Part shown: positions 43,441-47,848 of the stretch, one piece after another | How the letters are laid out: every line of letters starts with the position of its first letter | Position numbering within the stretch: position 1 is the first letter of the stretch | Assembly (NCBI RefSeq): GCF_036507355.1 | Contig: NZ_AP027877.1 | Source: Escherichia coli | Lineage (GTDB): Bacteria; Pseudomonadota; Gammaproteobacteria; Enterobacterales; Enterobacteriaceae | Reading direction: 5' to 3' (one strand) | DNA: 64,000 nt | Position numbers and translations under genes: made by a program | Notes under the pieces: generated by a model | What the model was told of the DNA's origin: nothing | Seen by the model: only the letters and a program-made list of their open reading frames with translations | The model's database searches: none

Positions 43441-43605
43441 ATTTGCAATAGCGTAATGGCGCGCCGTGGGAAGCGCGGACATTAATTAACCAACTGCACT
43501 GCGTGTCTTTCAGGATCAAAGGTTTTCGCGGTAGCGGGATGCGTCGTGTTGATGACGACCATGCCCGACAGTTGCAATTCGTGGCAAAAATGCAGGAATA
43601 AAACA

Positions 43606-45846
43606 ATGAACAAGAAGATTCATTCCCTGGCCTTGTTGGTCAATCTGGGGATTTATGGGGTAGCGCAGGCACAAGAGCCGACCGATACTCCTGTTTCACA
43701 TGACGATACTATTGTCGTTACCGCCGCCGAGCAGAACTTACAGGCGCCTGGCGTTTCGACCATCACCGCAGATGAAATCCGCAAAAACCCCGTTGCCCGC
43801 GATGTGTCGGAGATCATCCGTACCATGCCAGGCGTTAACCTGACCGGTAACTCCACCAGTGGTCAGCGAGGGAATAACCGACAGATTGATATTCGCGGTA
43901 TGGGTCCGGAAAACACGCTGATTTTGATTGACGGCAAGCCGGTAAGCAGCCGTAACTCGGTGCGTCAGGGCTGGCGTGGCGAGCGCGATACCCGTGGTGA
44001 TACCTCCTGGGTGCCACCTGAAATGATTGAACGTATTGAAGTTCTGCGTGGTCCGGCAGCTGCGCGTTATGGCAACGGCGCGGCGGGCGGCGTAGTTAAC
44101 ATCATTACCAAAAAAGGCAGCGGCGAGTGGCACGGCTCCTGGGACGCATATTTCAATGCGCCAGAACATAAAGAGGAAGGTGCCACCAAACGCACTAACT
44201 TTAGCCTGACCGGTCCGCTGGGCGACGAATTCAGCTTCCGCTTGTATGGCAACCTCGACAAAACTCAGGCTGACGCGTGGGATATCAACCAGGGCCATCA
44301 GTCCGCGCGTGCCGGAACGTATGCCACGACGTTACCAGCCGGGCGCGAAGGGGTGATCAACAAAGATATTAATGGCGTGGTGCGCTGGGACTTCGCGCCT
44401 CTGCAATCACTCGAACTGGAAGCGGGTTACAGCCGCCAGGGTAACCTGTATGCGGGTGATACCCAGAACACCAACTCTGACGCTTACACTCGCTCGAAAT
44501 ATGGCGATGAAACCAACCGCCTGTATCGCCAGAACTACTCGCTGACCTGGAACGGTGGCTGGGATAACGGCGTGACCACCAGCAACTGGGTGCAGTACGA
44601 ACACACCCGTAACTCGCGTATTCCGGAAGGTCTGGCGGGCGGTACCGAAGGGAAATTTAACGAAAAAGCGACACAGGATTTCGTCGATATCGATCTTGAT
44701 GACGTGATGCTGCATAGCGAAGTTAACCTGCCGATTGATTTCCTCGTTAACCAGACGCTGACGCTGGGTACGGAGTGGAATCAGCAACGGATGAAGGACT
44801 TAAGTTCCAACACCCAGGCACTGACCGGAACGAATACCGGTGGCGCTATTGATGGCGTGAGTGCCACCGACCGTAGCCCGTATTCAAAAGCAGAAATTTT
44901 CTCGCTGTTTGCCGAAAACAACATGGAGCTGACTGACAGCACCATCGTAACGCCGGGGCTGCGTTTCGATCATCACAGTATTGTCGGCAATAACTGGAGC
45001 CCGGCGCTGAACATATCGCAAGGTTTAGGCGATGACTTCACGCTGAAAATGGGCATTGCCCGCGCCTATAAAGCGCCGAGCCTGTACCAGACTAACCCGA
45101 ACTACATTCTCTACAGTAAAGGTCAGGGCTGCTATGCCAGCGCGGGCGGCTGCTATCTGCAAGGTAACGATGACCTGAAAGCAGAAACCAGCATCAACAA
45201 AGAGATTGGTCTGGAGTTCAAACGCGACGGCTGGCTGGCGGGCATCACCTGGTTCCGTAACGATTATCGCAATAAGATTGAAGCAGGCTATGTTGCTGTA
45301 GGGCAAAACGCAGTCGGCACCGATCTCTATCAGTGGGATAACGTGCCGAAAGCGGTGGTTGAAGGTCTGGAAGGATCGTTAAACGTACCGGTTAGCGAAA
45401 CGGTGATGTGGACTAATAACATCACTTATATGCTGAAGAGTGAAAACAAAACCACGGGCGACCGTTTGTCGATCATCCCGGAGTATACGTTGAACTCAAC
45501 GCTGAGCTGGCAGGCACGAGAAGATTTGTCGATGCAAACGACCTTCACCTGGTACGGTAAGCAGCAGCCGAAGAAGTACAACTATAAAGGTCAGCCAGCG
45601 GTTGGACCGGAAACCAAAGAAATTAGTCCTTACAGCATTGTTGGGCTGAGCGCGACGTGGGATGTGACGAAGAATGTCAGTCTGACCGGCGGCGTGGACA
45701 ATCTGTTCGACAAACGTTTGTGGCGTGCGGGTAATGCCCAGACCACGGGCGATTTGGCAGGGGCCAACTATATCGCCGGTGCCGGGGCGTATACCTATAA
45801 CGAGCCGGGACGCACGTGGTATATGAGCGTAAACACCCACTTCTGA
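43606..45846 (+). CDS. fepA: TonB-dependent ferric enterobactin outer membrane receptor FepA
   Basis: ORF 43546..45846 trimmed to MNKKIHSLALLVNLGIYGVAQA (signal peptide); TonB box DTIVVTA; C-terminal aromatic residue. Confidence 0.95.
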   Translation: MNKKIHSLALLVNLGIYGVAQAQEPTDTPVSHDDTIVVTAAEQNLQAPGVSTITADEIRKNPVARDVSEIIRTMPGVNLTGNSTSGQRGNNRQIDIRGMGPENTLILIDGKPVSSRNSVRQGWRGERDTRGDTSWVPPEMIERIEVLRGPAAARYGNGAAGGVVNIITKKGSGEWHGSWDAYFNAPEHKEEGATKRTNFSLTGPLGDEFSFRLYGNLDKTQADAWDINQGHQSARAGTYATTLPAGREGVINKDINGVVRWDFAPLQSLELEAGYSRQGNLYAGDTQNTNSDAYTRSKYGDETNRLYRQNYSLTWNGGWDNGVTTSNWVQYEHTRNSRIPEGLAGGTEGKFNEKATQDFVDIDLDDVMLHSEVNLPIDFLVNQTLTLGTEWNQQRMKDLSSNTQALTGTNTGGAIDGVSATDRSPYSKAEIFSLFAENNMELTDSTIVTPGLRFDHHSIVGNNWSPALNISQGLGDDFTLKMGIARAYKAPSLYQTNPNYILYSKGQGCYASAGGCYLQGNDDLKAETSINKEIGLEFKRDGWLAGITWFRNDYRNKIEAGYVAVGQNAVGTDLYQWDNVPKAVVEGLEGSLNVPVSETVMWTNNITYMLKSENKTTGDRLSIIPEYTLNSTLSWQAREDLSMQTTFTWYGKQQPKKYNYKGQPAVGPETKEISPYSIVGLSATWDVTKNVSLTGGVDNLFDKRLWRAGNAQTTGDLAGANYIAGAGAYTYNEPGRTWYMSVNTHF

Positions 45847-45885
45847 TGCTAACGTCAGATTGTTGACAAAGTGCGCGTCGTTCAT

Positions 45886-45984
45886 GCCGGATGCGGCGTG
45901 AACGCCTTATCCGGCCTACAAAAATCTTGCCAATTCAATATATTGCAGGACCATGTAGGCCTGATAAGCGTAGCGCATCAGGCA
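45886..45984. repeat. REP/BIME-type palindromic units between fepA and entD
   Basis: GCCGGATGCGGCGTGAACGCCTTATCCGGCCTAC and GTAGGCCTGATAAGCGTAGCGCATCAGGCA are typical E. coli REP sequences in opposite orientation. Confidence 0.7.
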
Positions 45985-46011
45985 GTTTTGCGTTTGTCAT
46001 CAGTCTCGGAT

Positions 46012-46641
46012 ATGGTCGATATGAAAACTACGCATACCTCCCTCCCCTTTGCCGGACATACGCTGCATTTTGTTGAGTTCGATCCGGCGAATTTTTGTGA
46101 GCAGGATTTACTCTGGCTGCCGCACTACGCACAACTGCAACACGCTGGACGTAAACGTAAAACAGAGCATTTAGCCGGACGGATCGCTGCTGTTTATGCC
46201 TTGCGGGAATATGGCTATAAATGTGTGCCCGCAATCGGCGAGCTACGCCAACCGGTGTGGCCTGCGGAGGTATACGGCAGTATTAGCCACTGCGGGGCTA
46301 CGGCATTGGCCGTGGTTTCCCGTCAACCGATTGGCGTTGATATCGAAGAAATTTTTTCTGCGCAAACAGCGACCGAATTGACAGACAACATTATTACACC
46401 AGCAGAACACGAGCGACTCGCAGACTGCGGTTTAGCCTTTTCTCTGGCGCTGACACTGGCATTTTCCGCCAAAGAGAGCGCATTTAAGGCAAGTGAGATC
46501 CAAACTGATGCAGGTTTTCTGGACTATCAGATAATTAGCTGGAATAAACAGCAGGTCATCATTCATCGTGAGAATGAGATGTTTGCTGTGCACTGGCAGA
46601 TAAAAGAAAAAATAGTCATAACTCTGTGCCAACATGATTAA
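46012..46641 (+). CDS. entD: Enterobactin synthase phosphopantetheinyl transferase EntD
   Basis: ORF 45871..46641 trimmed to MVDMKTTHTSLPFAGHTLHFVEF...; the longer ORF would read through the REP elements. Confidence 0.9.
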   Translation: MVDMKTTHTSLPFAGHTLHFVEFDPANFCEQDLLWLPHYAQLQHAGRKRKTEHLAGRIAAVYALREYGYKCVPAIGELRQPVWPAEVYGSISHCGATALAVVSRQPIGVDIEEIFSAQTATELTDNIITPAEHERLADCGLAFSLALTLAFSAKESAFKASEIQTDAGFLDYQIISWNKQQVIIHRENEMFAVHWQIKEKIVITLCQHD

Positions 46642-46762
46642 TTGACAACATCTGGTACGATTCGCCCGCAGCCATCACTGACTGCGGGCGAAAGTGTAAA
46701 GCAGGTGCCTTACCACTCTGACCTGACAACCGGATATGCGGGGATTGCTCCCCGCACAACGG

Positions 46763-46915
46763 CTACTTCTTCGGTTCGTAAGCGAGAACAGCCTTAAACT
46801 CAATATTACGTTCCTTTACGGTGAACTCACACAGCGAGTCTCCGACCAGAAGCGTAAATCCCAGCACCGTCAAACACAGCACTATGACTGCCACAAGGGC
46901 ATATTTCGTCAGCAT
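46763..46915 (-). CDS. hokE: Hok-family type I toxin, copy 1 (50 aa)
   Basis: [50 protein letters not shown]; GGAGG Shine-Dalgarno 8 nt upstream of the ATG. Confidence 0.85.
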
Positions 46916-46954
46916 GTTTATATTGCCTCCATGCGAAGAAGGGACTACCATCCG

Positions 46955-47020
46955 AGTTGTTGAGGCTCGGAGTGGCAGCCCCAGGATTGATAGAAATATC
47001 TCCTGGGGCTTCATCTTTCC
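46955..47020 (+). ncRNA. Expected Sok-type antisense RNA of hok copy 1 (coordinates approximate)
   Basis: Inferred from hok/sok architecture: antisense RNA overlapping the leader and upstream ATG of the hok mRNA; no promoter or ends mapped. Confidence 0.25.
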
Positions 47021-47265
47021 AGACCTCAGAGTTAACCTGAAACCGGAAAGCTTCAGGCACCCGCCGTTATCTTACCCTTCCTTAGCAAAATAGCTGTTTA
47101 TTTATACAGTGAATCCTGTTTCGGACTTCTGTCGGCAAAACTCATCATTGCTCTTAAAACGAAATCGCCCGCAGCCATCACTGACCGCGGGCGAAAGTGT
47201 AAAGCAGGTGCCTTACCATCCTGACCTGACAACCGGATATGCGGGGATTACTCCCCGCACAACGG

Positions 47266-47418
47266 CTACTTCTTCGGTTCGTAAGCGAGAACAGCCCTGA
47301 ACTCAATATTACGTTCCTTCACCGTAAACTCACACAGCGAGTCTCCGACCAGAAGCGTAAATCCCAGTACCGTCAAACACAGCACTATGACTGCCACAAG
47401 GGCATATTTCGTCAGCAT
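47266..47418 (-). CDS. Hok-family type I toxin, copy 2 (50 aa, K41R relative to copy 1)
   Basis: [50 protein letters not shown]; same SD context as copy 1. Confidence 0.85.
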
Positions 47419-47457
47419 GTTTATATTGCCTCCATGCGAAGAAGGAACTACCATCCA

Positions 47458-47525
47458 AATTGTCTGGTTTGGAGTGGCAGCCCCAGGGTTGATAGAAATA
47501 TCTCCTGGGGCTTCATCTTTCCAGA
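47458..47525 (+). ncRNA. Expected Sok-type antisense RNA of hok copy 2 (coordinates approximate)
   Basis: Same inference as for copy 1. Confidence 0.25.
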
Positions 47526-47848
47526 CCTCAGAGTAAACCTGAAACCGGAAAGCTTCAGGCACCCGCCGTTATCTTACCTTTGCTTAGCAAAATAGCTGTT
47601 TATTTATACAGTAAGTCCTGTTTCGGACTTCTCACTCCCCATTTGATCAACTGAAGCTGAACCCGTTTTTTTCTGCATGCCTCAATCGTCAAAATTCTTC
47701 GCCACCAGCCAGCCGTGCCATAACTTGTCACATTGCAAAAGTAGCCAATTTGCTTCAGTCACCATCACCAAAAAAAGAAATATTCCAGAACTTCCGCATC
47801 TCGCCCAGCCGCTCCGACTTCTATACTGAATAGAAAACGCCAACATAA

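Follow-up and report, generated by a model that had tools for sequence, protein, structure and literature searches.

Sequence analysis of the fepA-entD spacer of Escherichia coli: a BIME-1 repeat element and an over-long entD reading frame

BIME-1 elements are conserved over about 145 nt, which fits the unit of about 150 nt described here, and we take the class to be the same as the IHF-binding pairs of REP sequences called RIP or RIB. The classic intercistronic REP stem-loop that sets differential expression within an operon is that of malE-malF. A REP is defined here as an imperfect palindrome whose foot has a conserved GTAG (CTAC on the complement), and a BIME-1 as the combination of one y REP and one z1 REP, present as a single copy, with a long and well-conserved L linker that often carries an IHF site (PMC3333891). 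At other loci, REP and BIME elements are described in the same source as stabilizing the upstream mRNA and as terminating or attenuating transcription (PMC3333891), and PMC12306157 links translational control by a REP to a position within 15 nt of the stop codon. The fepA and entD genes are handled as a single Fur-regulated operon (PMC4676285, PMC10763504), and entD is additionally described as having promoters of its own (PMC10763504).

The window, that is, the whole stretch of 64,000 nt that was analysed, is E. coli chromosomal DNA from the region of the enterobactin cluster. The RefSeq fepA gene is 2241 nt long and ends 174 nt upstream of entD, and this spacer, together with the start of entD, is the subject of the present analysis. 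The features to which we refer are as follows.

Gene order in the window: fes (minus strand), fepA (plus strand), entD (plus strand), two hok/sok modules (minus strand), ybdK (plus strand)
43606..45846, plus strand: fepA coding sequence, ferric enterobactin outer-membrane receptor, with its stop TGA at 45844-45846, from the open reading frame (ORF) list
About 45856..46007 (about 150 nt), plus strand: element classed from its sequence as a complete BIME-1, filling the fepA-entD spacer, with at least 60% column conservation across copies
45857..45870, plus strand: left arm of the terminal inverted repeat, AGATTGTTGACAAA, pairing with 45993-46006 (86% complementary) and kept in the family consensus
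45871..46020, plus strand: spurious N-terminal extension of entD, 50 codons through the BIME-1
45886-45919, plus strand: REP-a, a Y-type REP, GCCGGATGCGGCGTGAACGCCTTATCCGGCCTAC, 34 nt, with its CTAC end at 45916-45919, the complement of the GTAG-first form on this strand
45920..45954, plus strand: L linker of the BIME-1, 35 nt, with the core AATTCAATATATTGCAG at 45932-45948
45933..45945, plus strand: predicted IHF-consensus-like site, ATTCAATATATTG, with one mismatch to WATCAANNNNTTR
45955-45983/4, plus strand: REP-b, a Z1-type REP, GTAGGCCTGATAAGCGTAGCGCATCAGGC, 29-30 nt, with its GTAG start at 45955-45958 and in the orientation opposite to REP-a
45985..46007, plus strand: conserved right flank of the BIME-1, GTTTTGCGTTTGTCATCAGTCTC, with the right terminal inverted-repeat arm (45993-46006) inside
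46012..46014, plus strand: ATG of the older 209-aa EntD model, in frame (MVDMKTT) and not conserved
46021..46641, plus strand: entD coding sequence with the best support (RefSeq annotations, the invariant Met 51, Pfam and NCBIfam), 206 aa (MKTTHTS...), phosphopantetheinyl transferase

When a 501-nt query across the REPs was compared with complete E. coli genomes, the identity reached 99.6%, and at least 80% of the query was covered in 5345 of the 5426 genomes, always under the annotation "fepA | entD". Within E. coli the element at this position is nearly invariant. In the blood isolate E. coli 2020N21-246, entD and the BIME-1 are intact, and fepA, which has an internal stop, is listed as a pseudogene. 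On the 3′ side of entD, the hok/sok module is tandemly duplicated (46662-47130 and 47165-47632; the two copies are 95-96% identical and the period is about 503 nt), and the Rfam sok model (RF01794) matches the minus strand at 46907..47062 and 47410..47564; at the position of this duplication MG1655 has one hokE with IS186, and E. fergusonii has two hok genes.

The initial annotation had reported two opposed REP palindromes between fepA and entD, and both are present in the sequence as claimed, at 45886-45919 and 45955-45984. The extent of 45886-45984 that it gave to the element is correct for the REP pair, but the unit conserved in the family is longer, at about 45856-46007. The arms of REP-a, 45886-45899 and 45902-45915, form an imperfect palindrome; REP-a and REP-b are complementary to each other, and their CTAC and GTAG ends face the 35-nt linker. 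Both have the form of a REP, an imperfect palindrome of 30-40 nt with a GTAG or CTAC foot, and both are dispersed, high-copy and extragenic, being located 3′ of the fepA stop and 5′ of the entD start. We assume that REP-b is of the Z1 rather than the Z2 type from its short length and the L linker, together with the published consensus sequences. REP-a carries TGCCGGATG and not TGCCTGAT, which makes it y type by the criterion of PMC3333891. The y signature TGCCGGAT is found in REP-a and the z signature TGCCTGAT in REP-b, whose minus strand reads TGCCTGATGCG, the z-type signature of the same paper (PMC3333891).

Neither REP sequence occurred in 100 dinucleotide-preserving shuffles of the window, and a search of the 64-kb window for the REP foot (CTTATCMGGCCTAC, with at most one mismatch) returned no other foot beyond this one pair. 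In 5425 of the 5426 complete E. coli genomes, the 501-nt query matched 13-55 places per genome (median at least 40), indicating that the fepA-entD spacer consists of dispersed repeat DNA. The RefSeq record of MG1655 has no REP features annotated at all, and the Rfam naRNA4 model gave only a partial, sub-threshold match on the minus strand at the Y REP.

The 14-nt terminal inverted repeat, 45857-45870 with 45993-46006, forms the ends of the BIME-1 unit, and the order of the parts in the family is CAGATTGcTGACAAAGTGCGCtTTGTTCAT, Y REP, L linker, Z REP and aTTTTGCGTTTGTCATCAGTCTC. When the linker core AATTCAATATATTGCAG was scanned against one genome per bacterial species, at least 121 matches were obtained. 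Among the matches listed, the core lay between a CTAC-ending and a GTAG-starting REP in 47, and these REP-flanked copies belong to E. albertii, E. whittamii, E. coli, Pseudocitrobacter and two contigs under other names. Of the remaining matches listed in unrelated phyla, nearly all are single and without REPs; such REP-less matches can be regarded as chance. In an alignment of 50 REP-flanked copies and the window, columns with at least 60% conservation extended from about 45856 to about 46007. A perfect Escherichia-type BIME-1 was observed on a 262-nt contig of Desulfosporosinus sp. OT and on a contig of an uncultured Bacteroides MAG, and the presence of BIME-1 on contigs of unrelated phyla is likely to reflect enterobacterial contamination of the assemblies.

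The fepA-entD copy resembles the BIME-1 class in every structural respect that we compared. Its two REPs, a y and a z1, are inverted relative to each other and occur once, not in tandem. It has a long conserved L linker (35 nt, with a 17-nt core that recurs in 47 copies) with an IHF-type site, conserved flanks and a length of about 150 nt, and it is located between two operon genes, directly past the end of the upstream gene. No structural difference from the class was found in this copy, in which the IHF site is one predicted from sequence. Judged by these features, the element in the fepA-entD spacer is a complete, textbook BIME-1.

Through the L linker, column conservation in the alignment of the 50 copies and the window was 0.5-0.9 or higher. 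IHF-like matches with one mismatch are expected 0.13 times per 152 nt, and the L linker of the fepA-entD BIME-1 probably binds IHF at the DNA level; the available parts of two IHF ChIP papers (PMC3333857, PMC8407004) make no mention of IHF occupancy at this locus. The same linker corresponds to the Rfam family ES036 (RF02751), an sRNA also called CssrF. The 43-nt model matched 45921-45962 over its full length with 40.5 bits (E = 3e-7), above the curated gathering score of 37.6 by which membership is decided. Compared with the sRNA, the fepA-entD copy aligns to the model end to end, in the 47 REP-flanked copies the L linker of the BIME-1 contains the core matching the model, and the match here sits within the fepA-entD transcript. 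Given this above-threshold match to the L linker, the ES036 family probably describes the linker of a repeat element and not a single sRNA gene. A literature search on ES036 returned only unrelated grant numbers.

We also compared the spacer among relatives. The fepA-entD spacer of E. fergusonii and of three Citrobacter species is about 50 nt long and contains no BIME, and in Escherichia sp. E4930 and E. whittamii a BIME is present at the spacer as in E. coli. Each of the four BIME-less relatives has a perfect GC-rich hairpin of 10-12 bp at the same position, with energies of -23 to -26 kcal/mol, and the stems of these hairpins differ (CCUCCCCC/GGGGGAGG, CCCUCUCC/GGAGAGGG, CCCCUCCUCC/GGAGGAGGGG and CUCUCCCGC/GCGGGAGAG). 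The flanks of the spacer align (TGATGCTAAyG on the left and ATATrGTCGAyATG on the right), and between them about 151 nt stand in place of a hairpin of about 29 nt. Because a hairpin is kept in four relatives despite the differing stems, structure at the fepA-entD spacer appears to be under selection. The comparison also suggests that the BIME-1 apparently took the place of the hairpin in the E. coli lineage. In the relatives' hairpins the 5′ arm is pyrimidine-rich and the 3′ arm GGAGG-like, so that the structure is kept without sequence conservation, and the hairpin is located 15-19 nt 5′ of the entD ATG, beyond the normal distance of a ribosome-binding site.

The presence of the repeat has a direct consequence for the reading frame of entD. 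The 256-aa entD ORF (45871-46641, starting with GTG) had been called misleading in the initial annotation on the ground that it reads through the REPs, and our results agree: the ORF is in the ORF list, and its extension is repeat DNA. The entD frame is open from 45853, back to the TAA at 45850-45852, and since the BIME-1 has no stop codon in this frame, mechanical ORF calling yields the 256-aa form. The 50-codon extension is BIME-1 repeat sequence almost throughout, and all the upstream candidate starts, from 45871 to 45994, lie within the unit. The Pfam domains of the 256-aa ORF are found from residue 87 onward, and no Pfam domain matched within the extension. The extension is absent from E. 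fergusonii and the three Citrobacter species, with their spacers of about 50 nt, and because the BIME is missing there, the extension is to be read as repeat DNA and not as coding sequence. In over-called EntD sequences of other genera, the part 5′ of the invariant Met is unrelated to the E. coli extension. The 256-aa entD is therefore an artefact, its extension being repeat DNA and not protein. At fepA, the longest ORF begins at GTG 43546, 20 codons 5′ of the annotated ATG 43606 (MNKKIHS..., a signal peptide), and this start, with the region 43546-43605, is the same longest-ORF artefact as at entD.

For the start codon of entD, ATG 46012 (MVDMKTT) had been proposed, and this proposal was not borne out by either the alignment of orthologs or the inspection of ribosome-binding sites. 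In the EntD ortholog alignment, homology begins at ATG 46021 and not at 46012. This ATG encodes Met 51 of the long ORF (MKTT), which is invariant, and both the Escherichia RefSeq EntD (206 aa) and the Citrobacter EntD (207-208 aa) begin there. The coding sequence starts at 46021 in MG1655 (NP_415115.2) and in nine other E. coli RefSeq records, and its length is 621 nt (206 aa) except in NZ_CP115386.1, in which the start is unchanged and the length is 660 nt. The position corresponding to 46012 is ATA in E. fergusonii, and neither E. fergusonii nor C. amalonaticus has an in-frame ATG, GTG or TTG from the upstream stop to the conserved ATG. Among ten other E. coli-lineage sequences aligned with the window, two have ATA and eight have ATG at 46012. 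An exact 45-nt probe located the ATA allele in at least 174 of the 5426 complete genomes of E. coli; strain 042 is one of them, and entD is annotated normally in these genomes. The only upstream GGA (46008-46010) ends 1 nt before 46012 and 10 nt before 46021, and it is unusable as a ribosome-binding site for 46012 because it is too close. Both ATGs have weak Shine-Dalgarno pairing (-3.3 to -4.1 kcal/mol), as does every candidate start, and the pairing does not decide by itself. From these comparisons the real start of entD is most likely ATG 46021 (206 aa), three codons past 46012, and the codon at 46012 is dispensable and lineage-specific.

Two other N-termini deserve weighing against this start. 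A genuinely extended EntD, encoded by the BIME and having 256 aa with GTG 45871 as its start or 247 aa with GTG 45898, would be in line with a frame that is open in all the E. coli strains sampled and with the frequent output of gene callers; the cluster headed by the 247-aa form, whose GTG (45898-45900) lies in the Y REP loop, has 2481 members. However, the extra sequence is common to dozens of unrelated loci, it is missing in E. fergusonii and Citrobacter and matches no domain, no SD-like sequence was found 5′ of GTG 45871, and the candidate starts are buried in a fold predicted at -68 kcal/mol. In addition, a 1-nt deletion in the linker of Escherichia sp. E4930 puts the upstream part of the ORF out of frame, and the extended form is never annotated in the RefSeq records inspected, so that this reading has hardly any probability left and is already close to refuted. 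Translation from ATG 46012 (209 aa) in the strains that carry it, or use of both ATGs, is a less extreme proposal, which we nevertheless regard as improbable. The window and eight of the ten aligned sequences have the ATG, both ATGs lie in an unpaired stretch 3′ of the predicted BIME fold, and 209-aa entries are common in public databases (for example a cluster with 719 members). The NCBIfam model of EntD, NF007604, also has 209 positions, begins with MVDM and aligns from residue 48 of the long ORF, which is 46012, over 46012-46638. Against this stand the ATA in E. fergusonii, two of the E. coli strains sampled and at least 174 complete genomes, the Citrobacter homology from 46021 and the use of 46021 in all the RefSeq records inspected, and an SD-like GGA that is only 1 nt away. 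The NF007604 model and the NCBI pipeline records inspected (MKTT, 206 aa in all but one) differ by three residues. An experimental EntD N-terminus and a primary description of REPs 5′ of entD were not found in our search of the available literature.

EntD gave matches to the Pfam domains 4PPT_N (PF17837, 65.1 bits) and ACPS (PF01648, 53.4 bits) and to the equivalog NF007604 (436.6 bits against a cut-off of 169), and both domains together with the equivalog score place it among the EntD / Sfp-type phosphopantetheinyl transferases. Compared with known EntD, an Sfp-type 4′-phosphopantetheinyl transferase, it is 99-100% identical to E. coli EntD fragments, and it is 84-90% identical to the full-length RefSeq Escherichia EntD clusters listed; across the entD start region the DNA is 99.6% identical to that of MG1655. 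Only the annotated N-terminus varies among the databases, with lengths of 206, 209, 217, 232, 236, 247 and 260 aa. Thousands of EntD entries in public protein collections have a false N-terminus. The case shows how a stop-free repeat inflates an ORF, and its value lies mainly in annotation quality: the correction to the next ATG downstream (46012) is still three codons too long, and the relatives that have no repeat favour the start at 46021 by comparison alone, without experiment.

We then considered what the element may do in the transcript. The BIME-1 RNA is predicted to form one composite hairpin (-68.5 kcal/mol, z = -7.5), and the basal stem of the predicted fold is the terminal inverted repeat, 45857-45870 with 45993-46006. 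The unit is separated from the fepA stop by 9 nt and ends 14 nt upstream of the entD start at 46021; the basal stem, starting at 45857, leaves 10 nt to the fepA stop. REP-a is located 39 nt past the fepA stop, outside the 15 nt linked to REP translational control, and only the outer BIME-1 stem (45857) begins within that distance. A consensus scan of 45700-46200, which covers the spacer and the adjacent 150 nt of either gene, gave no sigma-70-like promoter, no intrinsic terminator and no terminator-like T-run. A sigma-70 promoter on the perfect TTGACA at 45863-45868 was considered and rejected, there being no suitably spaced -10 hexamer. Our literature search returned no data specific to fepA-entD on mRNA 3′ ends or stability.

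In the mechanism that we propose, fepA and entD would be co-transcribed from the Fur-controlled fepA promoter, and the BIME-1 RNA would fold into a very stable composite stem-loop. This structure may protect the upstream fepA message from 3′-to-5′ decay, lower read-through, or do both, and EntD, which would be needed only in catalytic amounts, might in this way be kept far below FepA. IHF binding at the L linker would be a property at the DNA level. Because the two genes are treated as a single operon and such effects of REP and BIME elements have been reported, we propose that the BIME-1 would protect the fepA mRNA and limit entD; its role is thus likely to be that of an RNA stem-loop that stabilizes or attenuates the fepA-entD transcript. 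If entD has its own promoters (PMC10763504), part of its transcription would bypass the BIME. The predicted arrangement is like the malE-malF type of intercistronic REP stem-loop in that a stable RNA structure derived from REPs separates fepA from entD, and in that the upstream receptor, FepA, would be needed abundantly and the downstream enzyme, EntD, in low amounts; it differs in that a BIME-1 with an IHF linker is present and not a simple REP pair, and the likeness is one of predicted structures. Taken as a whole, the account of a complete BIME-1, an extension of repeat DNA, a start at 46021 and a stem-loop role with IHF binding suggested by the analysis is one that we hold to be probable.

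The role in expression can be questioned from one side and extended on the other. The BIME-1 could be a neutral insertion that leaves the expression of both genes unaffected, the ancestral hairpin having been lost incidentally, since copies of the same sequence are scattered over many unrelated loci, no terminator-like T-run is present, and the literature search found no functional data for this locus. However, a strong hairpin is kept in all four BIME-less relatives despite the differing stems, the BIME gives an even stronger predicted structure than those hairpins, hardly any variation in the element is seen across E. coli, where at least 5345 of the 5426 genomes have it, and, in PMC3333891, REP and BIME elements are reported to stabilize mRNA and terminate transcription elsewhere; neutrality is accordingly rather unlikely in our estimate, without being far-fetched. 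The extension is that a mobile BIME-1 took the place of the private hairpin, in the lineage of E. coli, E. whittamii and Escherichia sp. E4930, and would now set the FepA:EntD ratio, possibly with translational coupling. Since the basal stem lies 10 nt from the fepA stop and 14 nt from the entD start, ribosomes terminating on fepA might open it and couple the translation of entD to that of fepA, and IHF binding could supply an additional DNA-level input to the setting of the ratio. This combined proposal is speculative, and we think it doubtful in its full form. The preferred reading remains that of a likely stem-loop that stabilizes or attenuates the fepA-entD transcript.

The operon is well studied and the position of this BIME-1 in it is known; the curated E. 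coli annotation already gives the correct entD start, and nothing in these results is new in kind. If the extended proposal were true, the fepA-entD locus would be a natural swap experiment for REP and BIME function. In terms of biology, the spacer of E. coli provides one more BIME-1 between two operon genes, at a place where its relatives keep a plain hairpin.
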